Positions 1-64,000 of a stretch of 64,000 bases of DNA are shown here, piece by piece (position 1 is the first letter of the stretch; every line of letters starts with the position of its first letter). The notes beneath the pieces were generated by a model. That model did not search any database. It was given only the letters and a program-made list of their open reading frames with translations, and had not been told where the DNA came from. The position numbers and the translations under genes were made by a program. The stretch comes from Deinococcales bacterium (GTDB lineage Bacteria; Deinococcota; Deinococci; Deinococcales; JAAFIG01), in assembly GCA_031414595.1 (NCBI GenBank), contig JANNVX010000018.1:32001-96000 (forward strand), given 5' to 3'.

Positions 1-508
1 CTTTCTGCTCGAGCTACTGGCGGAATTTCAAATTTCTATTCCCGAACTTGGGACAGTCAAAGCCAAATCTCGTCCACGGGTGATTCTGACCTCCAATCGC
101 TCGAGGGAGTTGTCTGATGCGCTGCGGCGGCGCTGCTTGTATTTATGGCAGTCGTATCCGACGGTTTCGCAGGAACTCGAGATTCTAAGGGCGCGTTTGC
201 CAAGTATCAATCCGCGTTTGGCATTGCAAATTGCAAATTTAATGGAAGCCTTGCGGCGTTTGCCGTTTCATAAAGTCCCTGGTGTGGCTGAAACCCTCGA
301 TTGGGCGCTTGCCCTGATGAACTTGCATCATGAGGCACTTGATGCCAAAACGGTGCTTTTAACCCGAGGTTGTATCTTAAAAGCCCGTGAAGATTGGGTG
401 TTACTCGAAAATAATCTTCCAGCCCTCGAGAAAATCTGGAATGACAAAATAGGTCAGCGCAAACCCTTTGAAACAGATTTTGGAATTGGCACGGTTACGA
501 CCCGCTAA
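1..508 (+). CDS. MoxR/CoxD-family AAA+ ATPase, 5'-truncated by the window edge
   Basis: Open frame from position 2 (FLLELLAEFQISIPELGTV...VILTSNRSRELSDALRRRCLY...KVPGVAETLDW), typical of CoxD-like MoxR proteins; followed by a VWA partner. Confidence 0.85.
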   Translation, partial: FLLELLAEFQISIPELGTVKAKSRPRVILTSNRSRELSDALRRRCLYLWQSYPTVSQELEILRARLPSINPRLALQIANLMEALRRLPFHKVPGVAETLDWALALMNLHHEALDAKTVLLTRGCILKAREDWVLLENNLPALEKIWNDKIGQRKPFETDFGIGTVTTR

Positions 509-523
509 ACCCCTGAGAATGCA

Positions 524-1702
524 ATGGCACTGCTCGAGAAAATCACCGCTTTTACCCAAATTCTGCGCCTCGATCATCAATTCAAAATTGGTGTTGGTGA
601 AGTAGCGGATGCCCTGCGCTCGCTCGAGATTGTGGAGATAACCCACAGCCGAGGGTTGTTGCAATCGGCGTTGCGGGTGGTGCTTTGCGCTAAACTCGAG
701 GAGATAGAAATTTTTGATGCGGCGTTTCAAGCCTTTTTCTTTCCAGAACGGGCTGGGGTGGCTCAAACTTTGCTGCCATCAGACGAACATCAAGCCTCGG
801 TGACAGATAAACCCGCTAATCATCCAAGTCCGCAGTCCCGAGAACAACCGCCAGAAGACAATCCAGAACAAGACCCAGACTTTGTGGGTTCTAAAACCAA
901 GCACCGCCCCGATGAGGATGACACTGAGGCTTCACCAGTCGAACGTTGGATGCGTGACTTGTTCAGTGCCGCCACTAGCCTTTCCGACGCACCCACAGTC
1001 AGTGCCGATGGTCTCGAGGCGATGCTTGGTGCGGCAGGGCATCTGGTGCGCTCATTGCGGCTTGGGCGCTCGAGAAAATGGCGCACCTTGCCAAGTGGCG
1101 CTCGGTTTGATTTTCGTAAAACTTTGCGGAAAAGTTTGGCTACAGGTGGTGAGCCGATTCATCCGTTTTGGTTGGGGCATCCAAAGCGCAACCCACGGAT
1201 TGTGCTGCTTTTAGATGGCAGCCGTTCGATGACCCAAACAACCCAAGCCACCTTGCAATTTGCCTTTGCCTTGGCGCAGCGTTCACGGCGCGTGGATGTC
1301 TTTACCTTTTCGACCGAACTGCGGGATGTTTCTAGTTTTTTGTATCAGCATCAACTCGAGTTACCAAACTTAGCCGCAGCTTGGGGTGGTGGTACTCAGA
1401 TTGGTCATAACTTGCGGGTTTTTTTGCGTGAACATGCGCCTCGGGTTTTAACCCCAGATACCTTGGTGATTATTTCCAGCGACGGCTTAGAGGTCGGTGA
1501 AACGCAGCTACTCGAGTCTAGTCTACGCGAAATAAAACGCCGTTCGGCTGGGATTATTTGGCTCAATCCATTGGCTAGTCAAAAAGGTTTTATGCCAGTC
1601 TCTCGAGGTATGAAAACGGCTTTGCCATTTATTGCAAAACTAAGCCATGCCCAAACGCCAAGCGAATTCTCGAGCTTGCTTGATAGTTTTTTGGCGCGTT
1701 GA
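524..1702 (+). CDS. VWA-domain protein, CoxE-like
   Basis: MIDAS motif LLDGSRSM, WGGGTQIG, ISSDGLE and WLNPL motifs; adjacent to the MoxR ATPase. Confidence 0.85.
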   Translation: MALLEKITAFTQILRLDHQFKIGVGEVADALRSLEIVEITHSRGLLQSALRVVLCAKLEEIEIFDAAFQAFFFPERAGVAQTLLPSDEHQASVTDKPANHPSPQSREQPPEDNPEQDPDFVGSKTKHRPDEDDTEASPVERWMRDLFSAATSLSDAPTVSADGLEAMLGAAGHLVRSLRLGRSRKWRTLPSGARFDFRKTLRKSLATGGEPIHPFWLGHPKRNPRIVLLLDGSRSMTQTTQATLQFAFALAQRSRRVDVFTFSTELRDVSSFLYQHQLELPNLAAAWGGGTQIGHNLRVFLREHAPRVLTPDTLVIISSDGLEVGETQLLESSLREIKRRSAGIIWLNPLASQKGFMPVSRGMKTALPFIAKLSHAQTPSEFSSLLDSFLAR

Positions 1703-1733
1703 TTGACGGTATTTGATTTAGGTAGAATCATCT

Positions 1734-3356
1734 ATGTCCTTTGGTTTTGTTGCTTCGTTGCGTTTACAAGAGTTATCGGATTTATTTGCAGTCAATAAAC
1801 GTGATTTTGCCTTTCTTGACGAAGGTATTCAACTTGCCGAGCAGGCAGCCAATTGGCTACTGTACGCTCAGTTTTGCGAATTGTTTGTGCAACGAAGTCG
1901 GGAAAAAGGGCAGTTGGCGCAGGGTTTGGAATTGGCAGATAAGGCTTTACTTGTCTTGCCAGAGTTGAACTGGCTGTTGCCTCGAGCTTTAATCAGGTAC
2001 GAACGCAGTCTTATTTTTATGGTGCTTGGGGATTATGAACTCACCATCAGCCAATTGATTGAATTGCATCCTATTTTTGAACAAGTTGGTTCGCCGCGTC
2101 AAAAAATTGCGATTGTGCGGAGTTTAGGTGTGGCTTTTTCCAAGAACCAGCAACCAGAACAAGGTTTGCAGTATTACCACTTGGCGGTTGAACAATGCTT
2201 GGCAATCGGTGATTTAATTGGGGCAACCTATACCAAGAACAACATTGCAATCAACCTAAAAAACTTAAATAAACCTGATCAAGCTGAACAAATTTTGCGT
2301 CAGTGTCTTGCCGATTTACCAAATTCGGGGCATGACTTTGCTTTAGCAGGTTTTAGTTCTAATTTGGCTTTGATTCTTGATAAACGAGGTTTATTTGCCG
2401 AAGCCGAGGTTCTGCACCGCCAAGCCTTAGAGATTGCCCAAAATACATCGTCGCTCGAAGGCGAAGTTGAATTTTGTTTGTGTTTTGGACGGCATTGGCT
2501 TTTGCGGCAACAACCCTCTGAAGGTTTATTTTTGTTGCAAAAAAGTTTGAAATTGGCAGAACAAGCCCACATGAAAGCCAAAATTTCCGAAACTCATTTT
2601 GAATTAGCGGTTGCCCATAAAGCATTGCAACAATTGGATTTGGCATATGCACATTTAGAACAAGGTTGGATTCTTGAGAAACAAGTTTTTAATGACACCA
2701 ATGCCCAACGAATCCAGCATTTGCAAATCCGTTTTGAAGTCGGTCAGCGTCAACATGAAGCTGATTTAGAGCGTGGCAAACGTCAAGAACTCGAGGTGGT
2801 CAATGCCGAACTAAGTAAAGTCAATCAAGAGAATTTAGATTTACTCGAACAACTCAGTAAACAAGCCCGTGAAGACGGTTTAACCGGCTTACTTAACCGC
2901 CGTGCTTTGGATGCTGCCCTAAATGCAGCTTTTTCGGCGGCGGTGCGACATAACCTCGATTTGTGTTTTATTCTTTTTGACTTGGATCACTTTAAGAATG
3001 TCAATGATCGTTTTGGACATCAAATTGGTGATGCTTGTCTGCGTGAAATTGCCGATTTACTGCGTAGTTCGGCTCGAGATTCGGATATTCTAGGGCGTTA
3101 TGGTGGTGAAGAATTTGTGATTGCTTTTTCACACAGTTCACTTGAACAGTCTTTGCTGTTTGCCAACCGTTGGCGTGAATTGGTCGAACAGTATGCTTGG
3201 CATGATATTCACCCCGAGTTGCATTTGACCATCAGTTTGGGATTGGCGATGTACACCAATCATAAAAATTATGAACGTTTGCTTGCCAGTGCAGATATGG
3301 CACTCTACCAAGCAAAAAATCAAGGTCGTAACAAAGTTGTGGTGAATGAATTTTAA
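1734..3356 (+). CDS. TPR-containing diguanylate cyclase
   Basis: TPR-like helical repeats; C-terminal DGLTGLLNRR, FDLDHFK, RDSD (I-site) and GGEEF; TAGAAT lies 5 nt upstream of the ATG. Confidence 0.9.
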   Translation: MSFGFVASLRLQELSDLFAVNKRDFAFLDEGIQLAEQAANWLLYAQFCELFVQRSREKGQLAQGLELADKALLVLPELNWLLPRALIRYERSLIFMVLGDYELTISQLIELHPIFEQVGSPRQKIAIVRSLGVAFSKNQQPEQGLQYYHLAVEQCLAIGDLIGATYTKNNIAINLKNLNKPDQAEQILRQCLADLPNSGHDFALAGFSSNLALILDKRGLFAEAEVLHRQALEIAQNTSSLEGEVEFCLCFGRHWLLRQQPSEGLFLLQKSLKLAEQAHMKAKISETHFELAVAHKALQQLDLAYAHLEQGWILEKQVFNDTNAQRIQHLQIRFEVGQRQHEADLERGKRQELEVVNAELSKVNQENLDLLEQLSKQAREDGLTGLLNRRALDAALNAAFSAAVRHNLDLCFILFDLDHFKNVNDRFGHQIGDACLREIADLLRSSARDSDILGRYGGEEFVIAFSHSSLEQSLLFANRWRELVEQYAWHDIHPELHLTISLGLAMYTNHKNYERLLASADMALYQAKNQGRNKVVVNEF

Positions 3357-5568: not shown

Positions 5569-6891
5569 ATGTTTCGTTTCATAGATTTATTTGCTGGAAT
5601 TGGCGGTTTCCGAGTTGCCCTCGAGTCAGTGGGAGGTGTTTGTGTCGCCTCTGCCGAAATTAACGCCCAAGCCATCGAAGTTTACCGTGCAAACTGGATT
5701 GAAGACGAACTAAATCATAATCTAGGCGATATTTCAAAACTTAGTTTACTTCCCGAACACGACCTGATGGTTGGTGGCGTTCCTTGTCAACCGTGGTCAA
5801 TTGCGGGACAGAACAAAGGTTTTGATGACCCTCGAGGGCAGCTTTGGGGCGACGTGATTCGCTTAGTTGAATTTAACCGCCCAAAAGGATTTATTTTTGA
5901 AAATGTCAAAGGTATGGTAGACCCCAGACATACCGATTGTCTCGAGACTATTTTGTCTTCATTTAGGCAATTGGGCTACCAAGTTCAAGCAAAATTACTC
6001 AATGCCTTTGATTATGGCGTTCCGCAAAATCGAGACCGTGTTTTTGTGGTTGGGACTCGTACTGACTGTACACAGTCGGCTTTTGTTTACCCGCCCTACC
6101 AAGAAAATAAATTGCGTTTGCACGATATTTTTGATATTGAAGCACCAAAAAAACAGACCCCAGAAATCGAATTAGAGCGAGACTTATTTGGTGAGCGTAT
6201 CGGCACGGGCTTTAATAAACTCACGCCAAAAGACCAATACAACGAATTTTTTATCCTTAACGATTTACGCCACGGACCAACCAGTATTCATTCTTGGGAA
6301 ATCTATGACACCACAAACCGCGAAAAAATGATTTGCCTAACCCATCTTCGCAATCGTCGGAACAAGAAATTTGGCGACCTAGACGGCAGTCCACTCAGTT
6401 ATCCACAGTTGCTTGAACTGATTCCAGATTTGCAAGAAATAGAACTCGAGAATTTAGTTGAAAACAAGATTTTTATCAAAACAGAGTCTGGTAGCTATGA
6501 ATTTCTAAACCGGCGAATGTCGAGCGGAATTAACGGCACATACCGAATTTTCTTACCAACCGCCCGTTTTTTTGGCACACTCACGGCTCGAGGGATGAAT
6601 GATGAAATTGCACAAATTGCTGTGACTGGCGATACACCCGCCGAATACAAGCAAAACTTTATTGCACAAATTTTGCGCCCAAAGCTGCATCGTCCGATTA
6701 CGGTGCGTGAAGCAGCCCGTTTGCAGGCTTTCCCTGAATACTTTGAGTTTCATAAAAGTGATGCCGTCAGTATGCGCTTACTTGGCAATAGTGTCGCCAT
6801 CAAGGTTGTTCAAGCCGTAGCAAAGTCTTTACTAGAAACTGGTGTCTTTTCTCGAGTTAGCACAACCCAAAAGGAATTGATTTTAGCATGA
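5569..6891 (+). CDS. DNA (cytosine-5) methyltransferase, M.HgiBI/HgiCII/HgiEI-like (predicted GGWCC)
   Basis: Motifs FAGIGG, GGVPCQPWS, FENVKG, QNRDRVF, REAARLQAFP and GNSV; sequence and length closely resemble the Herpetosiphon GGWCC methyltransferases as I recall them. Confidence 0.9.
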   Translation: MFRFIDLFAGIGGFRVALESVGGVCVASAEINAQAIEVYRANWIEDELNHNLGDISKLSLLPEHDLMVGGVPCQPWSIAGQNKGFDDPRGQLWGDVIRLVEFNRPKGFIFENVKGMVDPRHTDCLETILSSFRQLGYQVQAKLLNAFDYGVPQNRDRVFVVGTRTDCTQSAFVYPPYQENKLRLHDIFDIEAPKKQTPEIELERDLFGERIGTGFNKLTPKDQYNEFFILNDLRHGPTSIHSWEIYDTTNREKMICLTHLRNRRNKKFGDLDGSPLSYPQLLELIPDLQEIELENLVENKIFIKTESGSYEFLNRRMSSGINGTYRIFLPTARFFGTLTARGMNDEIAQIAVTGDTPAEYKQNFIAQILRPKLHRPITVREAARLQAFPEYFEFHKSDAVSMRLLGNSVAIKVVQAVAKSLLETGVFSRVSTTQKELILA

Positions 6892-7715
6892 ATACCGACA
6901 TGAAAATAGCCATTCAAAACGTGATTAAAACCATGATGGACAAGGTTATGGAACGGGTTTTACAGACCGACCCATTTATTGCCGAAACGCACCACGCCAG
7001 CAAACCGCTATATGCTGCCCTTGTACCGGACGAAATTTTTAAGGGTTCGCATTTTGAACGTCGGTTTGTTACCCCGTTTGGTGGAGTCTGGGAAAAACTA
7101 GCCGTGGTAGCTGCCGAACAAGGCTCTGCCAAGTGCATCCAGCAACATACCATTCGTGGGAATATTCAAAGTGGAAGACTGCAACGAATCCAAGAAGTGT
7201 TAAATAAACTCGAGCATCCAGAAATTGGTGTGGAGCGCCAAAAACCCAATTGGAACAGCGAACTTGCTTATATTCTCGAGGGCAACGGCGAACCGATACC
7301 TGCCACTGTAGTGTGCGATATTTACACCGAAAATACACAGACGAACCAGCGATTCGCTTTTGAGTTAAAAGCACCACTGCCCAACAGTGACCAAACCAAG
7401 CAAAGCAAAGAGAAAATTTTTAAGCTCAAAGCAATGGATTCAAAGCCCGTAGACGCGGCTTATTACGCATTACCCTACAATCCATATGGACAAAAAGCCG
7501 ATTATGCTTGGACTTTTCCAGCCCGTTGGTTTGACATGCGACAAGACGAAGTGGTTTTAATTGGCGCGGAGTTCTGGGATAAAATTGGCGGAGTTGGCAC
7601 ATATGCAGCCTTTATCGAAGCCATTAACGAAATTGGTTTACCCTACAAAGAACGGATTTACCGCGAATTCTTAGGCATTGAACCACTTGAGCAAGCCTCT
7701 AAACCCGTTTTCTAG
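6888..7715 (+). CDS. Type II restriction endonuclease, TdeIII/HgiBI family
   Basis: FERRFVTPFG, CDIY...FELKAPLPN (PD-(D/E)xK), YALPYNPYG and IGAEFWD motifs; start overlaps the MTase stop (ATGA). Confidence 0.85.
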   Translation: MNTDMKIAIQNVIKTMMDKVMERVLQTDPFIAETHHASKPLYAALVPDEIFKGSHFERRFVTPFGGVWEKLAVVAAEQGSAKCIQQHTIRGNIQSGRLQRIQEVLNKLEHPEIGVERQKPNWNSELAYILEGNGEPIPATVVCDIYTENTQTNQRFAFELKAPLPNSDQTKQSKEKIFKLKAMDSKPVDAAYYALPYNPYGQKADYAWTFPARWFDMRQDEVVLIGAEFWDKIGGVGTYAAFIEAINEIGLPYKERIYREFLGIEPLEQASKPVF

Positions 7716-34336: not shown

Positions 34337-35674
34337 ATGCGAGTTTTTATTTCCGATATTGGGCAACACGCCGAAAACACCGTCACCATTAAAGGCTGGT
34401 TGTCCGATAAAAGCGGCAAAGGCAAATTGCAATTCTTAAAACTGCGTGATGGTACTGGTTTTATTCAAGGCACAGTTTTTATTGGCGATGTCTCCGAAGA
34501 AACTTTTGAACTGGCAAAACGCCTTCCACAAGAATGCAGTCTCGAGGTGACTGGAATTGTCAGGGCAGATGCTCGAGCGCCAAGCGGATTTGAACTGGCG
34601 GTGCGCGATATAAAAGTCGTGGCATTGCCCACCGAGGAATACCCGATAACCCCCAAAGAACACGGCACAGAATTTTTATTAGATAACCGCCATTTGCATT
34701 TGCGACACCGTAAACCTTGGGCTGCTTTGCGGGTTCGAGACACGATTAAACGTGCCATTAACGATTTTTTTCATGACCGTGGCTTTATTCAGTTCGATAG
34801 CCCATTTTTTATGCCAACCGCCGTTGAAGGCACAAGCAATTTATTCGAGATTAACTTGTTTGACGAAGAAAAAGCCTATTTAAGCCAATCTGGACAGTTA
34901 TATGCCGAAGCTGGCGCAATGGCACACGGTAAGGTCTACACTTTTGGACCGACCTTTCGCGCCGAAAAAAGTAAAACCCGACGGCACTTGCTCGAGTTTT
35001 GGATGATTGAACCCGAAGTTGCCTACAACGACTGGGAGGACAATATGCGCCTCCAAGAAGATTTTGTGAGTTACCTTGTCGGGCGCTCACTCGAGGAGCG
35101 AAAAACCGAACTCGAGATTCTCGAGCGAGACACAACTAAGCTCGAGCCAAGCGCGGCTGGCAATTTCCCACGGGTTAGCTACACCGAAGCTATTGAAATG
35201 ATTAGTAAAGCCATCTCGAGCGGTAACTTACCCGAAAATGTCGCAGCCGACACCCAGCCTGTGATTTGGGGCGATGATTTTGGTGCGCCACACGAAACGA
35301 TTGTGGGTTCGTACTTTGACCGTCCGGTGATGATTCACAGTTATCCAGCCGCGATTAAAGCCTTCTATATGCAGCCACAAGCCCATGACCCACGCCTGGC
35401 AGCCTGCAACGACATGATTGCCCCAGAGGGTTATGGCGAGATTATTGGCGGGTCTGAGCGCATTCATGATTACGACTTACTAAAGAGTCGCATTCTCGAG
35501 CATGACTTACCACTCGAGCCATTTGATTGGTACTTGGATTTACGCAAATACGGTTCTGTGCCGCATAGTGGTTTTGGGCTTGGTCTCGAGCGCACCGTGG
35601 CTTGGATTTGTGGTGTGCCGCATTTACGCGAAGTGATTCCGTTCCCACGAATGCTAACGCGGATGAAGCCGTAA
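34337..35674 (+). CDS. asnS: Asparagine--tRNA ligase
   Basis: OB-fold anticodon domain, [21 protein letters not shown] and GFGLGLER motifs; TAGAAT lies 6 nt upstream. Confidence 0.95.
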
Positions 35675-41140: not shown

Positions 41141-41407
41141 ATCAGAAATCTTGGCACTACTGCAACACCTGTCAAAAAGGCTCAGCAGTAAAACTAGAAA
41201 TTCTCGAGCAGAACGCAAAAGCTGAGACTCGAGGCAAACAAAATCTCAACTGCTCGAAATGGGATTCAAAGCGCAAACTTTAGCATGGCATAGGCACAAG
41301 CCACCCGTGTACAGGTTCTAGGGTCAAGTTGAATGTAGCTATTGGCAACAAAATACAAGTGGGTTAAGATTCTGCACAAATAAAACTTACTGTGCAACTC
41401 TAATTTA

Positions 41408-42434
41408 ACGTGAGTTCGGGTTAAGCCATCGTCAATTCTGTCGGCATGAACTGCAAACTTGGTTTTTTCTCTTGATGACAATAAGCAATTAAGCCACAAA
41501 TGAGGTTCGCTAAGAAATTCATTGGACTACGATGCCTTGAATGCTCAATTTGACTAATGTTTTTACACTGGTCAATAATCGTTTCAACAATACTTCGTTT
41601 ACGAAGAAATAATGCGTCTTCATTTGGCATTGGTTGCTCACATTTCATATTCTTTTTCAATCGAGTAATCAATTGAATACCATGCTCTTCAATCAATTTC
41701 TGAAATAATGCTTTAGAAATATAACCTTTATCACCAAAAATCTTATGAAAGATATTCGAGAATGGATTCTCGATCATTTCCAGTAATCCTTTTCGGTCAT
41801 CAAGATTACCTGCACTCAAGTCAAGCCAGATAATCTCACCAGCATCATTGAATAATAAGTGCAACTTAAATCCGAAGAACCAACCCACACTGGTTTTACC
41901 ACGAGCCGCTAGACCAGCAAAGACTTTGTGGTTATGAATTCGACGATTGTGACAAACACTGAGTTTGGTACTATCCACAAAACTGATTCCCGAACAACGT
42001 CCTAAATGAGCAAATAGATAGGCTGATAAAGGCAATACTGAACGAGGTATCCACTCAACGAAACGATTATAACTTGGTAAAGTTGGGAACTCGCTTCTTA
42101 GGTAAACACAAACGTGTCGAGTGTAAAACCATTTGAAATCACGATAGCGTTGCTGATGGAATAAAATTAGGATAGTCATGATTTCGCTACCTGTCATACT
42201 TAAAGCCCGTTCTCGAGTACCAGTGGTGCTTGGTAAGGCGTTTTTAGGGTGGGTTTTGATGAATTCTTGGTTGAAATCATCGACTTCGCAGAATAATTCG
42301 AGTAAAGTCATACTGTCCTCCTTGTTGTTTTGTTGCAATTACAGCGTACAGGAGGACGCTTCTTATGTTGATTTATTCTATGAGAACAGAATGCAGTGGT
42401 GTTTTCTGTTAATACCTTTAACCCGAACTCACGT
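41408..42434 (-). mobile_element. IS982-family insertion sequence
   Basis: 17-bp terminal inverted repeats ACGTGAGTTCGGGTTAA / TTAACCCGAACTCACGT; 7-bp target duplication TAATTTA at 41401-41407 and 42435-42441. Confidence 0.93.
41421..42338 (-). CDS. IS982-family DDE transposase
   Basis: FVDST, GKTSVGWFFGFKLH, FGDKGY and RSIVET...IEHSRHRS motifs; stop codon lies inside the IR. Confidence 0.93.
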   Translation of the reverse strand: MQQNNKEDSMTLLELFCEVDDFNQEFIKTHPKNALPSTTGTRERALSMTGSEIMTILILFHQQRYRDFKWFYTRHVCVYLRSEFPTLPSYNRFVEWIPRSVLPLSAYLFAHLGRCSGISFVDSTKLSVCHNRRIHNHKVFAGLAARGKTSVGWFFGFKLHLLFNDAGEIIWLDLSAGNLDDRKGLLEMIENPFSNIFHKIFGDKGYISKALFQKLIEEHGIQLITRLKKNMKCEQPMPNEDALFLRKRSIVETIIDQCKNISQIEHSRHRSPMNFLANLICGLIAYCHQEKKPSLQFMPTELTMA

Positions 42435-42438
42435 TAAT

Positions 42439-45400
42439 TTAATTCTGGTCTGCCAGTTCTTGCCACCCAATGTCAAATAAAATAGTCTTGGCTCGTCCGG
42501 GGTTGTTAATGCGATGAATAAATGGTTTTGAACCTTCTAAAATTTCCACAACGTATAACCAATAATTCTTGGTCTTGCGTTCTCTAATTGCTGTTCTAAA
42601 TTCATTTGCACTCAGACTCACAAATGCCCGTTCTTTCCAAGTGCCTCTTATTGCTTTTAATTCAATCAAACGTTTTTCTCCGCCGCCTTCAGAATAAATA
42701 TCGTACCCATCCCAAGTTTCCCGACAATCCGTAGCCTTTCTTTTTTGCGAAAGCTCAAAATCTACAACTGCATCAAAACCGATTTGTTCAGTCTCTTTGT
42801 TGGTGATGTAACGCTGCATCCCGTCTTCACTAGGTCTTGTATCGCTCGATGCTCGTACTTTAGTTCTGTCACTTACAGGTCGGCGCTTAGAACTTCTTTT
42901 TGACTGTGGTTTTGATTGAGGCTGCGATGATGAATTTGGCGGGGGTGTTTTTGGCATTCTGCGGGCTGTTTGATTTGGTTCTTGTGACTTAGAACTTGCC
43001 GAGCTTCGGTTTTGACTTTGGGTATTGTTAATCTGTGGAATTGGCAGTTCGGGCGGGAATGGCTGAGGTGGTGGTTTTGTCTCGACACTTTGCGAAAAGG
43101 AGGATACTTTTCCTGCATCTTGAGTAGCCGAAGGTTCTGGTTTTTCGTCTTGCGAATTGTCTATGGGGAAGTCATCTTCATTTATATCTTTATCTTCGGA
43201 ATTTTCGCCCTGTAAATCATCTACAGAATCGGTGTCTAAATCTTCAACTTCTGGTTCTTGAGAGACTGTGGCTGGAATACCTTCATTTTGCTCTGATTCT
43301 TTAAGTACAAAAAATTCAGCTTCTTCAAGTTCGGAATCTGTAATACTTTCATTAAAAACTCGGACAAACCAATTTCTATTATGTGGTTCGATGTCAAATA
43401 TGTGACACAAAATTTCATGTATTTCTATGTCTTCATTGGTCAAAAATAATTCATTTATTTTTTCATCAAAAAAGTATTTTACACGGCTTATTTCTCGCTT
43501 GTATTCGTTGCCATAGTTCACTTCCCATCTCACTTTAATCTCTGAGACCATACTAGCTTTTAATCTTTGATATATTTTTTTATACTCTAGTAGTTTAGTT
43601 AGTTTATTTAGTATCCGAAATGCAATTTTTTCTTTTTCAATTAATTTTTCTTTGAGTTTTTCATGTACAACCAATTTTTCTTGATTATCAGTTGGAATTC
43701 TTATGACTGTTAGTACATCAGTAAGTTTTTTAATTCCTAATTTTTCATATAAAGTTGGAAATTCTGATGTTTCAAGTAACCTTAACTGCGATTTATCAAT
43801 CTCAAGATGATCGGCTTTTACTTTACTTAAGTCATCAATAATGACTTCTTCTGGCAACCACCAACAGTTTGGTTCATTTTTGAACTTGTGATAAATTATC
43901 TTTGCGCTTCTTAGGGTAGCGAGAACATCAAGAACTTTCGAGTCTAAACTCGGTTCTGCCAAAATGTGGTTTAATTTTCCTAAACAATAATCATAAACAG
44001 TCCTATCTTCTGTTGTAAATTTTTTACTCTGAGCAATTTCAAGAACCACATCTCGGTAATCTTGATAGCCAGGTGGGTTTTTGATGCCCAACATTTCAAT
44101 TAAACGCTTTAGTTCTTTATGTTGCGGTCTTAATTGATGACGTTTTTCTCCAAGGTTGTGATTATCTAAAAAACTCTGGTTCGCAGTAAAACCATCAAAA
44201 AGTGGCATCAGTTTCAATTCTGATACAACATTACCCAAGTCTCCTTCTGAAAATCGATTTAAGCGCTGAAGAAATTTCAACTGCAATTTTTCATCTCTAA
44301 TTATTTTTTTGATATGGTCAACAAAATATCTAATCTTAATCTCCGCAAAACGCAGACGGCTAAAAATAGCTTTGGGAATCTCAAAATCTGTAAACGAATA
44401 TCCGCTTGGAGTACCATACTCCATAAAAACTTTCTCGGTCATACAAAATAGGTTTTTAGGTGCAAACCACTGATTATGGTTTTCATCTGGTAGCCACGGA
44501 AAATCAAATATTTTCCAGAAATCAGGATTTTTCACTTCTTCCCGTTTTTCGAGGAATTCGAGAATTTTAATCCGTTTTTCTCGAGTTTTTGTACTTATTG
44601 GAGTGGCTAATTGGCTTTTCAATTGGTCAGCCACATCTTGTACTGTTGGTGATTTTCGCACCCCTAATTTTTCTAGGAGACTGCAAGCTACTTGGTCAAA
44701 ATCTGAATGGATTTTTGTGTATTCTGAGCCGAATAAATCATTCATGACTTCATTTGGAAACCAAACTTCATTGGGTTTTCTCCAGTTTTCATCGGTGCAA
44801 AACACTATTTCAACTGATTTCCAGGCTTCCATTTTTACTGAATCTATATGTTTTGACAAATGTGTAAAAATGTGGCGCTTCTCGGTTTTATCAGATAAGG
44901 ACTTAAAATAATTCAAAAGTTGGTCATTAAAATAAATATCTGGCTTTAGCGGTTTGATCTGGATTGTTTCAAGCCAAGTGGTGTACTTTTTGGCAAATTC
45001 TTTCTGAAGTAAAACTTTTACCTCAAATGGGTCATCAAATTCTTCACCAATAACAACTTCATTATGTTTATGGAAGTTTCCAAACGCGTCAGGGAAAATA
45101 CATAGCTCTTTAAGCATGAGAAACTCTGGTATCTTGGGGTCAATCCTACAGCTTAACCTAGAAATTAAGTTATCTAATCTCCAATTATCCTTGTATTTAA
45201 TTTCAAAATCTTTAATATCTTGCGAACTTGATTTGGCAATTCTTTCTAATGTCTTATCTAATCTTATTCTGCAATGTGTCTCAATATATTTCTTTAGTCT
45301 TTCTGGAAGCAAACTGTACCACTCTAGGTTAATAATTTCGTCCAACCTGAACCAAGGATAGTAAGCTGCTTGGCTGTCTGCATCAAGATAAAACAAATTG

Positions 45401-46938
45401 CTTATTTTTGTACAAGTTCCATTCTGAGAAATGCAAAAATGGAGTTCTGACAAAGTTTTACAACTGTTTTCATCAATATCGTTTTCAAATAGCTTTAGTG
45501 TTTCTAAAAAAGGCTTAATAGAATCAAAAGTAACATAATGCTCTCTTTTTTCGGTCAATATAGATTTGAGGGCATCAAGGTAATGATTCAACCTAAATTT
45601 CACGACGTTAAAAGACGTTAAAATTGTTTTGTATTCCTCGAGAGAGGGGTGAGGAAAATGCCAATCTTGTTGCTCTCTGATGGCGTGCTTAACAACATCG
45701 GAAATTTTATCGTTAAACGTAAAAACCTTGCTGGAATTTTCCCATTTTTCGGATTCGGTATAAATCCAATTTCCTTGCGAACTAATCTCTTTACATTTTT
45801 CCCAGTATTGAAGCACAAATTTTTTTAAGTATCTTTCGGATTTGGTATCTGCATCCTTAACTCGAGAAAAAAATATATACACTGATAAATGGCTCGAATT
45901 ATTTTTCAGATACTCGAGCATTGGTAGAATTAACCCCTGAATATCTTTTAATACACAGGAATTCCACTCTTCGTTGTTAGTCCCTGATTTCATTTCCAAT
46001 CTTTTCCGACTTAGCTCAGGATAAAATCCAGCATTGATATGAAATGGTAAACCTGTTGCTTCATCTGTTGGCAAAAAAACAAAAATCTTTCCTTCAAAAT
46101 GATCCATTTTTCTTGGCATGACAACAGATATATTGGTATCGCGCCCTAGTTCTTTATCTTGTTTCAGTTCTTCCGCCTGAAGCCATGCTTGAGAATTAGC
46201 AGAAATAGGCTGGATACCATAAAAATACTCTTCTGCTGTTCCTGGCTGCTCAACAATGGTGACATTTTTTTCATGAACCGTCTTCTGAATGCGAATTTGT
46301 TCTACCGAATTTCTGTATAAAATAAAGGTGGTCAAATGGCGTAAAAAGAAAATGACATGGGGCATTATTTCTTTTGCGGTGTCAAAATAGCTTTGGATGT
46401 CGGATTTTTCAATCTTTTGAAGCCCCAATCCCTTTCGGGTTTCAGAATATTCAAATGCCCAAGGCAATTCAAAAGTGGTTAAAAATCGTTGTGTAACTGG
46501 ATTTTCGATTGGATAACTTCTTCCTTGATTTTCTCCTTCTACTTTTGGAACCAATTCCCATTTCTCTTGTCTGGAATGAACAAAGGCTGTGTCGCAAAAT
46601 TGATAAACAGATACGAACCCAATACCAAATTTTCCAATGGCAGTGGAGTCTTCTCTTTTATAGCCACTGGCAATTTCTCGAATTTTTTTAAGATGTGTTG
46701 CTTGCATTTCCACATTATTTCCAACGACGATTTTATCGTCTTGAACATCGAAATGAAATTTTGTAGCATAATTTGCAGCGTCATCCTCAGTATCCTTGGC
46801 ATCATCAGCATTTTGGAGCAACTCGTGCAGCATTGCATCAAAACCGCTCATTCCCGATGATAGACTTATGCTAATCAAGTTAAGAGTATTAGCGCCATAT
46901 TCTTCGGACTTACCACGTTTTTCATTGCTCATTGTCAA
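42439..46938 (-). CDS. Sacsin/NOV-like GHKL ATPase with C-terminal DUF3883 (NOV_C) PD-(D/E)xK-like domain
   Basis: ELLQNADDA, GKFGIGF and FVFLPT...GLPFHINAGF at the N-terminus; GYDIYS...IELK...SANE...YWLYVV at the C-terminus; markedly AT-rich. Confidence 0.82.
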   Translation of the reverse strand: MTMSNEKRGKSEEYGANTLNLISISLSSGMSGFDAMLHELLQNADDAKDTEDDAANYATKFHFDVQDDKIVVGNNVEMQATHLKKIREIASGYKREDSTAIGKFGIGFVSVYQFCDTAFVHSRQEKWELVPKVEGENQGRSYPIENPVTQRFLTTFELPWAFEYSETRKGLGLQKIEKSDIQSYFDTAKEIMPHVIFFLRHLTTFILYRNSVEQIRIQKTVHEKNVTIVEQPGTAEEYFYGIQPISANSQAWLQAEELKQDKELGRDTNISVVMPRKMDHFEGKIFVFLPTDEATGLPFHINAGFYPELSRKRLEMKSGTNNEEWNSCVLKDIQGLILPMLEYLKNNSSHLSVYIFFSRVKDADTKSERYLKKFVLQYWEKCKEISSQGNWIYTESEKWENSSKVFTFNDKISDVVKHAIREQQDWHFPHPSLEEYKTILTSFNVVKFRLNHYLDALKSILTEKREHYVTFDSIKPFLETLKLFENDIDENSCKTLSELHFCISQNGTCTKISNLFYLDADSQAAYYPWFRLDEIINLEWYSLLPERLKKYIETHCRIRLDKTLERIAKSSSQDIKDFEIKYKDNWRLDNLISRLSCRIDPKIPEFLMLKELCIFPDAFGNFHKHNEVVIGEEFDDPFEVKVLLQKEFAKKYTTWLETIQIKPLKPDIYFNDQLLNYFKSLSDKTEKRHIFTHLSKHIDSVKMEAWKSVEIVFCTDENWRKPNEVWFPNEVMNDLFGSEYTKIHSDFDQVACSLLEKLGVRKSPTVQDVADQLKSQLATPISTKTREKRIKILEFLEKREEVKNPDFWKIFDFPWLPDENHNQWFAPKNLFCMTEKVFMEYGTPSGYSFTDFEIPKAIFSRLRFAEIKIRYFVDHIKKIIRDEKLQLKFLQRLNRFSEGDLGNVVSELKLMPLFDGFTANQSFLDNHNLGEKRHQLRPQHKELKRLIEMLGIKNPPGYQDYRDVVLEIAQSKKFTTEDRTVYDYCLGKLNHILAEPSLDSKVLDVLATLRSAKIIYHKFKNEPNCWWLPEEVIIDDLSKVKADHLEIDKSQLRLLETSEFPTLYEKLGIKKLTDVLTVIRIPTDNQEKLVVHEKLKEKLIEKEKIAFRILNKLTKLLEYKKIYQRLKASMVSEIKVRWEVNYGNEYKREISRVKYFFDEKINELFLTNEDIEIHEILCHIFDIEPHNRNWFVRVFNESITDSELEEAEFFVLKESEQNEGIPATVSQEPEVEDLDTDSVDDLQGENSEDKDINEDDFPIDNSQDEKPEPSATQDAGKVSSFSQSVETKPPPQPFPPELPIPQINNTQSQNRSSASSKSQEPNQTARRMPKTPPPNSSSQPQSKPQSKRSSKRRPVSDRTKVRASSDTRPSEDGMQRYITNKETEQIGFDAVVDFELSQKRKATDCRETWDGYDIYSEGGGEKRLIELKAIRGTWKERAFVSLSANEFRTAIRERKTKNYWLYVVEILEGSKPFIHRINNPGRAKTILFDIGWQELADQN

Positions 46939-47058
46939 AGCCTCTTTGCTACAGAATTAAAACTCGATATGGCAGACAGCATAGCATCCAAAAACAAAAA
47001 TGCGCCCAAGCCATAAGCTCGAGCAACCCGATTTTCTACGTTGCTGTATACTCCACGC

Positions 47059-47301
47059 ATGGTTGCTTACCCACCAGAACTCGAGGATTTACCGGAATTA
47101 TTTAGCTTAGACGATTCTTCTGTGCATTTGGCTTCATTGGCTGCCATCTCGAGACTCCAAGCCAAGGGCATTGATATTTTTTATTTTGACGAAGATTTAG
47201 CTGTGCATATCCTAGAGAAACCTTCTGGACAACGTTTCGAGATTCGCTACACTGGCGAACCTAAAGCTGCTTTTGAAATTATCCGTGCCTTAGATGCTTA
47301 A
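47059..47301 (+). CDS. Small protein, putative antitoxin partner
   Basis: TATACT lies 6 nt before ATG 47059; overlaps the downstream ATPase gene by 8 nt. Confidence 0.6.
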   Translation: MVAYPPELEDLPELFSLDDSSVHLASLAAISRLQAKGIDIFYFDEDLAVHILEKPSGQRFEIRYTGEPKAAFEIIRALDA

Positions 47302-47896: not shown

Positions 47897-47921
47897 ATTG
47901 AACCCAAATCCTGAGAGCATC

Positions 47922-47971
47922 TTCTCGAGTACAATAGTGCGCCCTCTCGAGTACAATAAAAGCGTGATTGG
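47922..47971 (+). repeat. 50-bp direct repeat, right copy (promoter and GTG start of kinase-STAND 1)
   Basis: Matches 41091-41140; contains TCTCGAGTACAATA twice at a 22-nt period. Confidence 0.85.
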
Positions 47972-50894
47972 TTCTCAAATCCTGCATTACCAAATCACCC
48001 GTCAACTTGGCGAAGGTGGCATGGGCATTGTTTACCAAGCCTTTGACACGTGGTTAGAACGCACTGTCGCCCTAAAATTCCTGCATCAGTCAAAACGCTT
48101 AAGTTTAGCGGCACTGCGTGGTTTTGCCAGAGAAGCCAAAATTGCCGCCCAACTCGACCACCCAAACATTGGTACAGTCTTTGCTTTAGAGCGCAGCCAA
48201 GATGATGTTTTTTTAGCAATGGCGTATTACCCCGGACTTGGACTCGATGCTCGGCTTGAACAGGGTACAATACCCATACCAGAAGTGATGCAGTACGCCC
48301 TTGAAATTGCCAAGGGACTCGAACATGCCCATTTGCATGGCGTGGTTCACCGCGATATTAAACCCAGCAATATATTTTTAGCCCAAACCCAAAGTGGCTC
48401 GAGTTGTAAAATCCTTGATTTTGGCTTATCTAAATTAGGTGAACGCAGCACTGTCCAGAGCATCAATATGGTCGGAACACCTGCTTATATGTCGCCAGAA
48501 CAATTGGACGGCAAAGCCTCGAGTAAGTCTGACCTTTGGGCTTGGGGAGCAGTGGTTTACGAGATGCTGTCTGGGGTGTCACCATTTAAGCGTGAATCCA
48601 TGATTGAAACATTTCAGGCACTCTTGTTAGAAGAACCTGTTCCCTTGCAAACTCGAGTGCCAGAAGCACCCGAAGTGCTGCTAAATTTAGTGCAGCAGTG
48701 TTTACAAAAAAATCCCGATGAGCGCCCCCTCGATGCTCGAGAATTGGTACGCAGTTTGAGTCAACCAAGTTTAAGTACAAATCGAAGTTCGATACTGTTA
48801 CTGCCTGTGCCAGCGACTGCTTTTATTGGGCGCGAGAACGAATTAGGCGAGTTGTCTGAGCGTTTTCAAAATACCCGACTTGTGACAATCACGGCGGCTG
48901 GCGGTATGGGCAAAACCCGTTTAGCCCTCGAGTACGCTCGGATTCATCAGTCCGATTATGCGGGTCATGCCTACTTTATTGATTTAGCCAAAATCACCGA
49001 TGCAAATTTGGTGGCGGGTCTGATTCTCGAGACGGTGCTTGGGCGGGCATCTGAAGACCCTAAGCAGCGTTTATTCCAAGAACTAAGAGATAAAGTGTGT
49101 TTGTTGGTGCTTGATAATTTTGAACACTTGATGTCAGCTTCAACCTTTGTGGCAGAGTTACTTGGTCAAACCAATCAAGTGCATCTGCTGATTACTTCCA
49201 GACAAACCCTTGGGTTAAAAGCCGAAACGGTTTTTGGACTGACGGGTTTAAGCACACCCACCGAGATTGACTTTACTTCTAACCACGCCGTCATACTTTT
49301 TACTCGAGTGGCTCAACGTTTTGATGCTAATTTTAATTTACAGTTTGAAGATTTTGAGCTTTTCAATCAGATTTTTATGGCGGTGGGTGGAATGCCTTTG
49401 GGTTTAGAACTGGCAGCCTCTTGGTTACGCAGCCTGAGCCTAAAAGAAATCCTACAAGAACTGCAAAACAACACCGATTTTCTAAAAAGCCAAGATGACC
49501 ATGTGTCTGAGCGTCACCGCAGTATCTCGGCGGTGTTTGCCTCGAGTTGGGATTTATTAAGCGCAGTAGAACAAAATGCCTTGGCACAACTGACGATTTT
49601 TCAAGGTGGTTTTGACCGCGACTTGGCTCGGGTTGTCTGTCAGGTGGATATGGTGGTGTTACAACGTTTGGTCAGTAAATCCTTACTTTACAAATCTGAA
49701 CAGCACTTTCGTTTTCATGAAATGATTCGTCAGCAAGCAGCGAACCGATTAAGCAGAGTAGAACAGCCGCGTTTACTCGAGAATTTAGTGAACGAATGTT
49801 TAAGTATCGCCAAAAATTGGTTTAACAAACGCCAAAGCGGACAGCAGCACCAAAGTGTTTTTGAGCGTTTGACCCAACTGACCGATAATTTTCGTTTGGC
49901 TTTAGAATACAGTTTAGAACATCAAAAAAGTAAATGCCTCGAAATCTTTTTGCTCTTGGGGCATTACTGGTCTATTCGAGGTTACTTTAAGGAAGCCCTG
50001 TACTGGCGTGAACAATTGCGTCAAACCATGAATTTCACAGCCCTAGAAAACTTATCAGTCGAAACACTTCATATCCGTTGGTTGGATCGCACAGGCAAGT
50101 ACCGTGAAGGTTTAGAAATTGGTAAAACCTGTTTAGAACAAGCCATAAAACTCAATGTTGCGACCCACCAAGCCCAACTGCATTTACACCTAGGTCAAAT
50201 TTTACTAAACTTAAACCAATTGGAACAATCTAAACAACATCTTCAACAAGCGGTGCGTTTTTTTCGCTATCAAAATCAGACTTTTAGCAGCATTGAAGCG
50301 ATTAATTCGCTCGGTGTGATTCATAATTTACTTGGCAACCTCAAAAAAGCCCGCTCGAGTTACCAAGAAACGATTCGGATTTGTCTATCATTTGGTGAGG
50401 AACGGATTGCACATCTTGCAGCAATCAATATTGCCACCGTAGATTTGGTCGAAAGCAACACGATTATCCACCTAGAACTTTTTACCAAGGCACTCGAGTA
50501 CGTCAAAAAAATAAAAGATTTGGTCAATCTTTCCGAAAGTTATTCACTGCTTGGCTATTATAAAATCACAATTCAAAATTTTAAGGAAGCCAAACAGTGT
50601 TTTCTCGAGGCGCTGCATATCTCGAGTTCCTATCAAAACGAAGTCGAATGTAGTGTCCATCTGCTTTTTCTGGGTTTTATTGCTGGGCTGGAAAATAATG
50701 CAGAACAAGCCCAGCCTTTACTCGAGGCTTCAAATCGGCTCAATCCAAATTTTGCCAATGGCTATTATTCTTTTGAATTATTCGCTAAACGGATTAGTAA
50801 CGATCCTCGAGTCAGTCAGCTTTGGGAGCAAGCTAAAACGCAAACCATCAGCCCGATGACTTTGGAGTTGGCAGTCGGGCTTGCCTTTGAGTAA
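47964..50894 (+). CDS. Ser/Thr kinase - STAND (NB-ARC-like) NTPase - TPR protein, paralog 1
   Basis: GEGGMG, HRDIKPSN, DFG; FIGRE, GGMGKTRLA, LLVLDNFEH, ITSR, GMPLGLELAA; TPRs. GTG at 47964 lies 6 nt after TACAAT and aligns with the paralog start. Confidence 0.9.
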   Translation: MIGSQILHYQITRQLGEGGMGIVYQAFDTWLERTVALKFLHQSKRLSLAALRGFAREAKIAAQLDHPNIGTVFALERSQDDVFLAMAYYPGLGLDARLEQGTIPIPEVMQYALEIAKGLEHAHLHGVVHRDIKPSNIFLAQTQSGSSCKILDFGLSKLGERSTVQSINMVGTPAYMSPEQLDGKASSKSDLWAWGAVVYEMLSGVSPFKRESMIETFQALLLEEPVPLQTRVPEAPEVLLNLVQQCLQKNPDERPLDARELVRSLSQPSLSTNRSSILLLPVPATAFIGRENELGELSERFQNTRLVTITAAGGMGKTRLALEYARIHQSDYAGHAYFIDLAKITDANLVAGLILETVLGRASEDPKQRLFQELRDKVCLLVLDNFEHLMSASTFVAELLGQTNQVHLLITSRQTLGLKAETVFGLTGLSTPTEIDFTSNHAVILFTRVAQRFDANFNLQFEDFELFNQIFMAVGGMPLGLELAASWLRSLSLKEILQELQNNTDFLKSQDDHVSERHRSISAVFASSWDLLSAVEQNALAQLTIFQGGFDRDLARVVCQVDMVVLQRLVSKSLLYKSEQHFRFHEMIRQQAANRLSRVEQPRLLENLVNECLSIAKNWFNKRQSGQQHQSVFERLTQLTDNFRLALEYSLEHQKSKCLEIFLLLGHYWSIRGYFKEALYWREQLRQTMNFTALENLSVETLHIRWLDRTGKYREGLEIGKTCLEQAIKLNVATHQAQLHLHLGQILLNLNQLEQSKQHLQQAVRFFRYQNQTFSSIEAINSLGVIHNLLGNLKKARSSYQETIRICLSFGEERIAHLAAINIATVDLVESNTIIHLELFTKALEYVKKIKDLVNLSESYSLLGYYKITIQNFKEAKQCFLEALHISSSYQNEVECSVHLLFLGFIAGLENNAEQAQPLLEASNRLNPNFANGYYSFELFAKRISNDPRVSQLWEQAKTQTISPMTLELAVGLAFE

Positions 50895-51007
50895 CATATG
50901 GATAGAATAGCGAATGTAGGGGTTATCTATTCGCATCAGTTTGACAAAATTTACAGTACAGGACAACAAAACCTAATCCTCAAATTGTATTGCCCATATC
51001 GCGTTCC

Positions 51008-51245
51008 AACCCTCACCCAACTCGCTTAGGCTCGTTACCCTCATCCCGCTAAACAGCGCGGGAGAGGGTTGTTCGGTTTGTTTTGCCGCTTTATATTTGA
51101 GACTTGAAAACCAAAAAATACTGTTTCAAACAAGTTTTTTGAGGCAGACAAAAGTCAAATCCCAAATCCCAAACCCCAAACCCTCCCCAAGCGAAGCGTG
51201 GTTTGGGGGAGGGTGGCGAGCTTCAAGCGAGTCGGGAGAGGGGCT
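51008..51245. repeat. Inverted pair of CCCTC-rich REP-like elements with a CCCAAAT heptamer run
   Basis: 51008-51070 resembles the reverse complement of 51178-51245 (CCCTC.CCC.ACTCGCTT..GCTCG..ACCCTC...GAGGGTT). Confidence 0.65.
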
Positions 51246-51396
51246 GACTGACTGTGGTTCTATGCGTGCTGAAAGGTTTTTGTTCTCAAATTTATACCTG
51301 TGGGAGGGGCTTGTTCCTTCCTTTTGAAGGCTTTAGTCTGTAATCTATTGCTGTTTTCATGTAGAATTTTTGCGTTCTGACCAGTAGAATCTAGCT

Positions 51397-56510: not shown

Positions 56511-56519
56511 GGTTTTTTG

Positions 56520-63245: not shown

Positions 63246-63318
63246 ATACAGACTGTAGCATCTTTTAAGCGGGATTCTTAAGCGGGTGTTAGACTCAAGC
63301 GCACCAAAAGGACTCAAA

Positions 63319-63777
63319 ATGCGAAATGCCACCACCCAAGACATTGGAAAACTCATCGAATTGATGACCGAGTTCTATGCCGAATCGAATTACGAACTGA
63401 ATACTGTAGAGGCAACTCGAGCTTTTGAAACCCTGCTGAGCGATTCGCGCTTGGGTTTCGTTTGGATCATCGAAGCCAACAATACAGAAGCTGGCTATTT
63501 GATTGTGACCCTAAAATTTGCGATGGAATACAGTGGCACAAGTGCTTGTCTCGATGATTTATTTGTAAAGCCGAAATTTCGCAACCGTGGTTTAAGCAGT
63601 GCTGCATTGCAAGAATTACGGGTATACTGCCAAAATAATCATATTCGAGCCATGACCGTAGAAGTCGGTAAGGATAATGCCGCAGCCCAAAAGGTGTACC
63701 GCAGAACAGGTTTTCTCGAGTTGGGAAATCGGGTTTTGCTTGGTATGGCTCTTGCAAACCCAAGTCATGTTGTTTAA
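63319..63777 (+). CDS. GNAT-family N-acetyltransferase
   Basis: DDLFVKPKFRNRGLS and NAAAQKVYRRTGF motifs. Confidence 0.88.
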   Translation: MRNATTQDIGKLIELMTEFYAESNYELNTVEATRAFETLLSDSRLGFVWIIEANNTEAGYLIVTLKFAMEYSGTSACLDDLFVKPKFRNRGLSSAALQELRVYCQNNHIRAMTVEVGKDNAAAQKVYRRTGFLELGNRVLLGMALANPSHVV

Positions 63778-63872
63778 CTTATTTCAGCCAAACCAAGACC
63801 CCTGCATTCATACCTGTGCCTCGAGCCAGTTTGCCCAAGATTTAGCACATCTAAAGTCGTTAAAATACAACC

Positions 63873-64000
63873 ATGAAGTTTTTTATCTTGGTTTTGTTTT
63901 TACTTTCCTCGAGTAGTTTAGCCCAAGGCAGTAATGAAACCATTCCGCCGGGTGTGTTTGCAGCTTTTTTGGCAGGTTTAATTTCATTTTTGTCGCCTTG
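63873..64000 (+). CDS. ccdA: Cytochrome c biogenesis protein CcdA/DsbD-like, 3'-truncated by the window edge
   Basis: MKFFILVLFLL...FAAFLAGLISFLSP(C); TAAAAT lies 6 nt upstream of the ATG. Confidence 0.75.
   Translation, partial: MKFFILVLFLLSSSSLAQGSNETIPPGVFAAFLAGLISFLSP

Follow-up and report, generated by a model that had tools for sequence, protein, structure and literature searches.

The palindromic hexamer CTCGAG occurs as 338 exact, strandless copies in the window examined here, a 64-kb stretch of DNA (positions 1..64000, corresponding to G000:C18:32001-96000) from a Deinococcales genome labeled G000 (4.49 Mb, 120 contigs, 47.2% GC). In 100 dinucleotide-preserving shuffles of the window the count averaged 7.33 (standard deviation 2.44, maximum 14), and base composition alone predicts 0.216 copies per kb. 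The copies are spread across the entire window at 12-29 per 4-kb bin, and the same excess is found throughout the genome and in every sampled member of its family. This behavior places CTCGAG in the class of highly iterated palindromes (HIPs), until now represented by HIP1 (GCGATCGC) and its alternates in cyanobacteria. The asnS gene (34337..35674, + strand), a class II aminoacyl-tRNA synthetase gene with PF00152 and PF01336 domains, contains 11 copies. Its orthologues were found at 98-62% identity, and within the family the majority of the copies are kept. This gene also served as the query with which relatives were found.

Against this background one stretch stands out as motif-poor. It is an AT-rich accessory region (41228..47018, - strand; GC 0.34-0.37; PF13612, PF25794, and PF13020) that includes an IS982-like DDE transposase gene with a single CTCGAG (41421-42338) and a 1499-aa Sacsin/NOV_C-domain gene with four (42439-46938), and it encloses the widest CTCGAG-free gap of the window (42212-44580). 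Together with the 11 copies in asnS and 29 in the first 5 kb, these numbers bear out the local counts of the original prediction, made from the sequence of the window alone. Within the low-GC stretch at 42439-50894, the 1499-aa Sacsin/NOV_C gene adjoins a zeta-toxin-like kinase gene, which is followed by a Ser/Thr kinase-AAA-TPR gene; this stretch may be a defence or accessory island.

Two further features of the window lie apart from the CTCGAG system. An intact type II restriction-modification pair is encoded at 5569..7715 on the + strand and comprises a C5 cytosine methyltransferase (5569-6891, +; PF00145, 5.3e-89) and a TdeIII-family nuclease (6888-7715, +; PF09520, 3.3e-70). The methyltransferase gene itself has 4.5 CTCGAG per kb and both genes of the pair are near normal density; the pair bears on the palindrome avoidance described below, not on CTCGAG. 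An intergenic repeat of ∼370 bp without strand (50927..51304), situated between two Ser/Thr kinase genes, matches 16 separate contigs of the sister genome G001 (75-82% identity). Probably a miniature inverted-repeat transposable element, it is not part of the CTCGAG system.

An Excess Acting on the DNA Word

No other of the 4,096 hexamers is as common in G000 as CTCGAG, which has 23,235 copies (5.2 per kb, or about one per 190 bases). Its observed/expected ratio (O/E) is 23.9 against base composition and 43.6 against a Markov model of order 1, well beyond the >15-fold genome-wide excess that characterizes HIPs, and 18.1 at order 2. The ratio falls to 3.8 at order 3 and 1.16 at order 4, but such high-order expectations are circular and uninformative because CTCGAG itself supplies most of the CTCGA and TCGAG pentamers, and the order-4 model was rejected as a test for that reason.

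The excess is equally marked in and between genes, where genes were taken as 3866 calls of a longest-open-reading-frame (ORF) heuristic (coding fraction 0.88) rather than those of a trained gene finder. Coding DNA has 5.15 sites per kb and non-coding DNA 5.35 (2,860 sites), and coding sites occupy all three frames, with 12,084 read as CTC-GAG, 3,992 as xCT-CGA-G, and 4,299 as xxC-TCG-AG. Shuffling synonymous codons inside each gene, which preserves both the protein and the motif-inflated codon usage, yielded 1,972 ± 40 sites over 10 replicates against 20,420 observed, a roughly tenfold difference. Sixty percent of Leu-Glu dipeptides (12,102/20,173) are spelled CTCGAG. Neither does the excess extend to related words; the remaining 15 NTCGAN hexamers have O/E of 0.02-1.23, and 69% of all TCGA tetramers fall inside CTCGAG. 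The claim that the word is abundant in all three frames and in intergenic DNA thus stands, and the two outcomes that had been named as fatal to it, loss of the excess on codon or dipeptide shuffling and an equal enrichment of other TCGA-containing hexamers, were not seen. The excess exceeds what codon or peptide usage can supply, and it acts on the DNA word, not on codons or peptides.

These data also dispose of the idea that CTCGAG is a codon or dipeptide by-product, or a relic of a GC-rich ancestor with surviving CTC and GAG codons. Something of the kind is seen in Thermus-like relatives (f4 and f5, GC 0.64-0.70), with an O/E of 2.6-9.7, where 160/174 coding sites lie in the CTC-GAG frame and the enrichment, just 1.5-1.9 times the codon shuffle, is therefore mostly a codon effect; two low-GC "Trueperaceae" metagenome-assembled genomes (MAGs; L016 and L017) are intermediate and frame-0 dominated. 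For the family of the window, by contrast, the tenfold excess over the codon shuffle, the 8,291 sites in the two other frames, the equality of non-coding and coding density, and the appearance of new sites within a genus leave this explanation already refuted, with next to no probability.

Anatomy of the Word and Its Placement

The unit under this force is exactly six bases long. At 2,461 non-coding sites the flanks of CTCGAG carry no information, with the sole deviation that C is rarer before and G rarer after the word. This deficit arises because CTCGAG sites extended to the 8-bp palindrome CCTCGAGG are about seven times rarer than expected; the one-sided CCTCGAG is not depleted. Sequences one substitution away are scarce when they differ by a transversion (O/E 0.17-0.69) and near expectation when they differ by a transition (1.07-1.23 at all three half-site positions), and the neighbors that would result from deamination through a T:G mismatch, CTTGAG and CTCAAG, are not depleted (O/E 1.07). 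The bias of one-off variants toward the outermost positions, by which Elhai (2015) characterized HIPs, was not found for CTCGAG in G000.

Placement relative to genes is close to uniform. In 40 bins of 30 bp around gene starts and stops, density is flat at 3.9-7.1 per kb, with 35/40 bins at 4.7-5.7; the lowest bin is the first 30 bp of genes and the highest lies just 5′ of the stop codon. Spacers have 5.0 sites per kb when divergent, 5.7 when tandem, and 6.2 when convergent. Distances between neighboring sites in G000 are near geometric (mean 191 bp, coefficient of variation 0.99), with a depletion of pairs less than about 20 bp apart, and two copies at distance 6 never occur because the avoided word GAGCTC would arise between them. 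Pairing of sites as hairpin or terminator stems was considered and rejected, as pairs 8-14 bp apart are depleted (17-54 per distance, compared with ∼75-135 at longer range) and the mild rise around stop codons (5.9-7.1 per kb) also counts against a terminator-stem reading.

Very long gaps are in excess, yet just 11 exceed 2 kb and the largest spans 4.9 kb in 4.49 Mb. The longest motif-free gaps are low-GC accessory loci, namely a polysaccharide-synthesis cluster, a clostripain/PIN locus, and SUKH immunity genes, and a low density of CTCGAG does therefore flag foreign DNA, as had been suggested. The accompanying suggestion that density might date such imports is harder to sustain; the clock is doubtful because a low-GC accessory methyltransferase gene (GC 0.39), present in 3/19 family genomes, already contains 7.5 sites per kb.

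Retention, Turnover, and Fixation Bias

About 130 kb of DNA from relatives was aligned to G000, with several relatives overlapping the same region, such that counts are not independent. CTCGAG is retained at 0.64 of sites within the genus, compared with 0.27 for any hexamer, and at 0.53 between genera, compared with 0.17. For CTC and GAG codons, being part of the motif roughly doubles the frequency with which a synonymous third position is conserved. Retention between related genomes above background is a further property of HIPs, although part of this sharing is parallel gain. Where a conserved Leu-Glu is not spelled CTCGAG in G000, relatives carry CTCGAG at 51-64% of such positions, and much of the sharing thus reflects parallel gain toward a high equilibrium. 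This weakens the argument that conservation proves selection; since retention alone is no proof of site-specific selection, changes were polarised on a tree, and that test supersedes the argument.

The tree ((G000,G005),G001) was applied to 32,632 triple-aligned positions of the window, with pairwise identities of 93%, 90%, and 90%. On the G000 branch 6/169 ancestral CTCGAG sites were lost, where 34.6 losses are expected at codon-position-matched background rates, and on the G005 branch 14/177 were lost against 41.1 expected, giving 20 losses against 75.7 for both branches together. The loss rate of existing copies is therefore 3-6 times lower than that of matched background positions. Third positions tell the same story, having changed at rates of 0.024 inside and 0.083 outside the motif on the G000 branch, and 0.040 and 0.093, respectively, on the G005 branch. 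Most losses are C>T or G>A changes, and the central CG accounts for 8/20. Gains from one-off neighbors numbered 1/39 on the G000 branch (0.58-1.30 expected) and 3/45 on the G005 branch (0.85-1.91 expected).

The force on CTCGAG is still acting. Its magnitude may be approximated by a simple two-state model, in which the loss ratio of ∼0.26, together with an at least tenfold excess over each transition neighbor, would imply a scaled fixation bias of roughly 2-3 for each site.

Effect on Proteins and Limits of the Force

The cost of maintaining the word is visible in the proteome, where the Leu-Glu dipeptide has an O/E of 2.22 in G000. When the RpoC codons of 22 genomes were aligned, 11-26 CTCGAG were counted in each family member and 0-12 in each outgroup; apart from two sites in G019, every outgroup site lies in frame 0. 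At 30 frame-0 columns CTCGAG is present in at least 3 of the 11 family genomes, and in 10 of these 30 columns Leu-Glu occurs in 0/11 outgroups, which have IA, VA, FD, KE, or other pairs there instead. Leu-Glu was thus newly created in the RpoC of the family. The accessory methyltransferase gene mentioned above, confined to three genomes, contains 11-15 CTCGAG, six of which are common to all; its other sites are lineage-specific and include replacements of FT, AE, LA, RK, and RL by LE. Both this gene and the polarised comparison indicate that new sites arise within the genus.

The reach of the force is nonetheless limited. Because the rRNA of G000 is not assembled, G013, a complete, single-chromosome family genome, was used instead, and its 23S rRNA gene has 1 CTCGAG in 2,933 nt, compared with 18 in 3 kb of flanks. 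The word is lacking in RNA genes under strong constraint and in AT-rich DNA of recent import.

Distribution Across the Deinococcales

The relatives recovered with asnS are uncultured Deinococcales/Trueperaceae MAGs, in agreement with the taxonomic placement made from the window alone. In the family of the window, all 19 sampled genomes, drawn from five genera with GC of 0.45-0.61, have a CTCGAG O/E of 12-34, CTCGAG is the top palindrome in each, and the excess amounts to 5-10 times the codon shuffle, in all frames and in spacers. Three non-Deinococcota control loci from the same search have O/E of 0.7-2.0. Elsewhere in the order, where samples comprise 8-60 kb per genome and ORF calls are rough in high-GC DNA, the frame-0 enrichment of the Thermus-like groups has been described above, and Deinococcus-like members (f3; L031, L035, and L039; GC 0.66-0.70) avoid CTCGAG, having 2 sites in 60 kb, and a single order thus includes biases of opposite sign. 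G027, like the two low-GC "Trueperaceae" MAGs, is intermediate at 5-7 times the shuffle, with frame 0 predominating. The CTCGAG excess is a trait of one uncultured Deinococcales family.

Palindrome Avoidance and Viral Contigs

The abundance of CTCGAG is set in a genome from which other palindromes have largely been removed. The 64 palindromic hexamers of G000 have a median O/E of 0.09, with 34 below 0.1, whereas the 4,032 non-palindromic hexamers have a median of 0.84 and only 2% below 0.1. GGGCCC is absent and TGCGCA has 2 sites, and at the tetramer level GGCC has an O/E of 0.01 and GATC of 0.14. Those non-palindromes that are depleted are degenerate palindromes (GDGCHC, GRCGYC, GGNNCC, and CCWGG). 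G000 is an extreme case of restriction avoidance. From one genus of the family to another the set of avoided palindromes changes, but CTCGAG is in constant excess. Palindrome avoidance is visible in the window too, and the avoided words outnumber the type II systems that can be identified in G000.

Among at least 126 stretches listed, a few viral contigs of GC 0.64-0.71 (L190/L191, IMGVR_UViG_3300044681_000429; L218; and L179) carry 7-9 CTCGAG per kb in several frames, and one of these is also GGCC-poor. Among the matches listed, tblastx linked none of these contigs to G000, and comparison with isolate phages did not help to identify a host.

Proposed Explanation

The explanation we prefer is that CTCGAG belongs with the HIPs, as a hyper-iterated palindrome common to the family, and is held at a mutation-fixation equilibrium by a directional force at the DNA level and by an agent linked to recombination. 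As a whole this is a tentative proposal, to which we give somewhat less than even confidence. The force acts on the DNA word, and under this proposal a candidate dimeric CTCGAG-recognizing protein would act on recombining or incoming DNA, such that CTCGAG-bearing alleles would be preferentially taken up, recombined, or kept during heteroduplex repair, and would spread through a naturally transformable, heavily restricted population. That the agent is indeed a dimeric protein of this description seems to us possible but more doubtful than the proposal around it. The agent would be neither an XhoI-family restriction enzyme, nor a Vsr nuclease, nor a vertically inherited methyltransferase of the five main Pfam families. 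The mechanism is preferred because recent work ties HIP1 to natural transformation, HIP1 having been reported to boost transformation in a methylation- and homology-dependent manner (bioRxiv 10.1101/2024.09.10.611283) and proposed as an uptake sequence (PMC13756078). A link to transformation also draws on the presence of ComEC in 18/19 family genomes and on the largest motif-free gap of only 4.9 kb in 4.49 Mb, which fits gene flow that comes mostly from within the clade.

A more specific version, which we regard as rather unlikely, holds that CTCGAG may mark DNA as "self" for the clade, a tag that a putative dimeric protein would read in the course of natural transformation or of homologous recombination, and that the word would spread by molecular drive and rewrite proteins as it does so. 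In this lineage under extreme restriction pressure, with half of its 6-bp palindromes nearly purged, DNA bearing the tag would be favored in uptake, recombination, or retention. Were this version true, palindromes of the HIP type would represent a general means, evolved convergently, of biasing gene exchange toward kin, and the puzzle of HIP1 could be addressed in this family as well, independently of the cyanobacteria.

Several observations weigh against a recombination-linked agent. No CTCGAG-binding or uptake protein was identified, and competence does not discriminate, because the outgroups that lack the trait all have ComEC (PF03772; 12/12 outgroups and 18/19 family genomes). A bare 6-bp palindrome resembles the recognition sites of restriction-modification systems more than an uptake sequence; it has neither the flanks nor the orientation of known uptake sequences, and it is five times denser. 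The near-geometric spacing is not the even spacing that a coverage function would favor. The motif-rich viral contigs, if they are lytic phages of the clade, are unexplained by uptake bias, and non-orthologous enzymes could methylate CTCGAG in different genomes. The polarised test, moreover, is confined to 32.6 kb of one window, the relatives in it are not independent samples, and the excess of gains, although in the expected direction, is based on 4 events.

Alternative Explanations and the Search for an Agent

The foremost alternative is methylation. In Elhai's model of HIPs, transposed to this family, each genome would have some CTCGAG methyltransferase, not necessarily orthologous from one genome to the next, and methyl-directed repair or strand discrimination would ratchet near-sites to full sites and protect existing ones. 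We consider this rather unlikely for CTCGAG, though it is the most probable of the alternatives, and several observations are in its favor. Each alternate HIP in cyanobacteria is described as having a methyltransferase of matching specificity (PMC4390886), and CTCGAG itself is reported as a methylated motif common to one host-phage group, of unstated phylum, in a hot spring, in a study which also describes hot-spring Deinococcota as holding fixed methylated-motif profiles (bioRxiv 10.64898/2026.06.24.734251). G000 has ∼25 DNA methyltransferase genes, several without a specificity that can be assigned from sequence and one with a TaqI-like specificity domain, and its identifiable pairs include ScaI-, NgoPII-, NgoBV-, TdeIII-, and MutH/Sau3AI-like nucleases alongside type I, IIG, and III systems. 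A further point in its favor is that 8/20 polarised losses change the central CG by C>T or G>A.

The gene content of the family argues the other way. The XhoI nuclease family (PF04555) was found in 0/19 family genomes and 1/12 outgroups, the latter being the Thermus-like G021, where it lies beside an N6_N4 methyltransferase and is the sole XhoI-family nuclease in the order among the genomes searched; only the generic C-terminal motif region of that methyltransferase matches anything in G000, and it has no close homologue there. Vsr (PF03852) was likewise found in 0/19. Methyltransferases of G000 were compared with PF01555, PF00145, PF02384, and PF02086 hits of five further well-assembled family genomes (G006, G009, G010, G011, and G013, which are 91-94% complete), and no orthologue group of these families or of PF07669, the families to which the search was confined, was common to all six genomes, incomplete as MAGs are; G013 has no PF01555 enzyme and G010 no PF00145 enzyme. 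Two individual candidates for the cognate enzyme were also rejected, a TaqI_C-type methyltransferase (C4:28798-30789) found in just G000, G001, and G003 (3/19), and a methyltransferase-like gene on contig C72, beside a Uma2 gene, with orthologues in 4/19. The lack of depletion of CTTGAG and CTCAAG and the lack of outer-position bias among one-off variants, such as HIP1 shows, point in the same direction. The original prediction had envisaged a methylation- or repair-driven, or chromosome-organizing, system and recommended a hunt for an XhoI/TaqI-like orphan methyltransferase; as far as gene content can tell, a cognate methylation or Vsr-type repair mechanism is not supported, and the TaqI_C-type and C72 enzymes, the two that had looked most promising, are accessory.

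Selection at the level of the chromosome is less likely still. CTCGAG would here bind a nucleoid or chromosome-organizing protein, with a tiny gain in fitness from each site, a reading that was reached for HIP1 by Xu et al. (PMC5861425). The uniform profile relative to genes, with no gene-level signal, and the retention at orthologous sites above background are both consistent with it. On the other hand, sites are spaced nearly at random, the word is dispensed with in rRNA operons and accessory islands, turnover is high with parallel gain in place of fixed positions, and a candidate protein was not found.

A third alternative, to which we attach very little probability, involves the Uma2/DUF820 family of solitary PD-(D/E)XK putative nucleases, one paralogue of which would nick near-cognate heteroduplexes such that repair favors CTCGAG. 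Uma2 genes are present at 4-39 copies in 19/19 family genomes (23 in G000), compared with 0 in three Thermus-like and 0-1 in three Deinococcus-like genomes, and a published Pfam table gives 15-93 copies of the family for many cyanobacteria and none for a block of others (PMC2853384). Across the order, however, Uma2 follows the motif imperfectly, as G019 has 32 copies and f5 genomes 3-16 with only weak enrichment, while G027 has none and still reaches five times the codon shuffle. The idea is purely correlative, concerns a family described as having no known biochemical function (PMC3424549), and serves as a lead only.

Comparison With Known Systems

Repair bias is known to raise the frequency of a methylated palindrome in one well-studied case, the Vsr/Dcm very-short-patch repair system of E. 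coli, which acts at CCWGG. The family differs in having no Vsr in any of its 19 genomes and no depletion of T:G product neighbors, and the effect here is far larger. XhoI/PaeR7I-type restriction-modification systems share the recognition word, and one such pair exists in the order, in G021. Restriction words are normally avoided, however, as nearly every other palindrome is in G000, and the nuclease family has no representative in the 19 family genomes.

The uptake sequences of Neisseria (DNA uptake sequences) and the Pasteurellaceae (uptake signal sequences) offer a closer parallel. They too are short words spread genome-wide, within genes as well, at a cost to proteins; related species have them in common, foreign DNA has fewer of them, and the lineages concerned are naturally competent. 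Known uptake sequences are, however, 9-12 nt long, asymmetric, and flanked, and no asymmetric core of this length with conserved flanks was found at the 2,461 non-coding CTCGAG sites. CTCGAG also has no known receptor, and the competence genes that would accompany an uptake role, although present, are equally present in relatives without the trait.

The closest counterparts are HIP1 and the alternate cyanobacterial HIPs (Elhai, 2015, PMC4390886; Xu, Lawrence, and Durand, 2018, PMC5861425), and the original proposal that CTCGAG behaves like HIP1 has held up well. As described in those studies, HIPs are exact GC-rich palindromes with an excess of at least an order of magnitude in all frames and in intergenic DNA, they are retained at orthologous positions, and they have no gene-level role; CTCGAG shares each of these properties, is scarce in AT-rich accessory DNA, and, like HIP1, is common to a large clade whose genomes hold many restriction systems. 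The differences are also clear. CTCGAG belongs to another phylum, has six bases where HIP1 has eight, and reaches ∼5 per kb where HIP1 is given as ∼1 per kb (Elhai, 2015, PMC4390886). It visibly alters the proteome, its one-off variants are not biased to the outer positions, and no conserved cognate orphan methyltransferase was found for it in the six family genomes compared. Its spacing is near random at short range; HIP1 is reported to be periodic at 10-90 kb (Xu et al., 2018, PMC5861425). A full-text literature search, outside which most subscription journals fall, found no published description of a CTCGAG excess in Deinococcota or elsewhere.

CTCGAG is thus a denser counterpart of HIP1 in another phylum. 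HIP1 has remained unexplained for three decades and could until now be studied in one phylum only; a second hyper-iterated palindrome, with a different word, a higher density, and a strong effect on proteins, changes that position. In practical terms, CTCGAG is a strong compositional marker for binning these MAGs and flags imported DNA, and XhoI cloning of DNA from these organisms is not feasible. As the system seems to operate without the conserved orphan methyltransferase that anchors current models of HIP1, it permits a comparative test of those models, in which the features common to both systems (a heavy restriction load, natural competence, and an expanded Uma2 family) are candidate causes and those that are not shared are dispensable.

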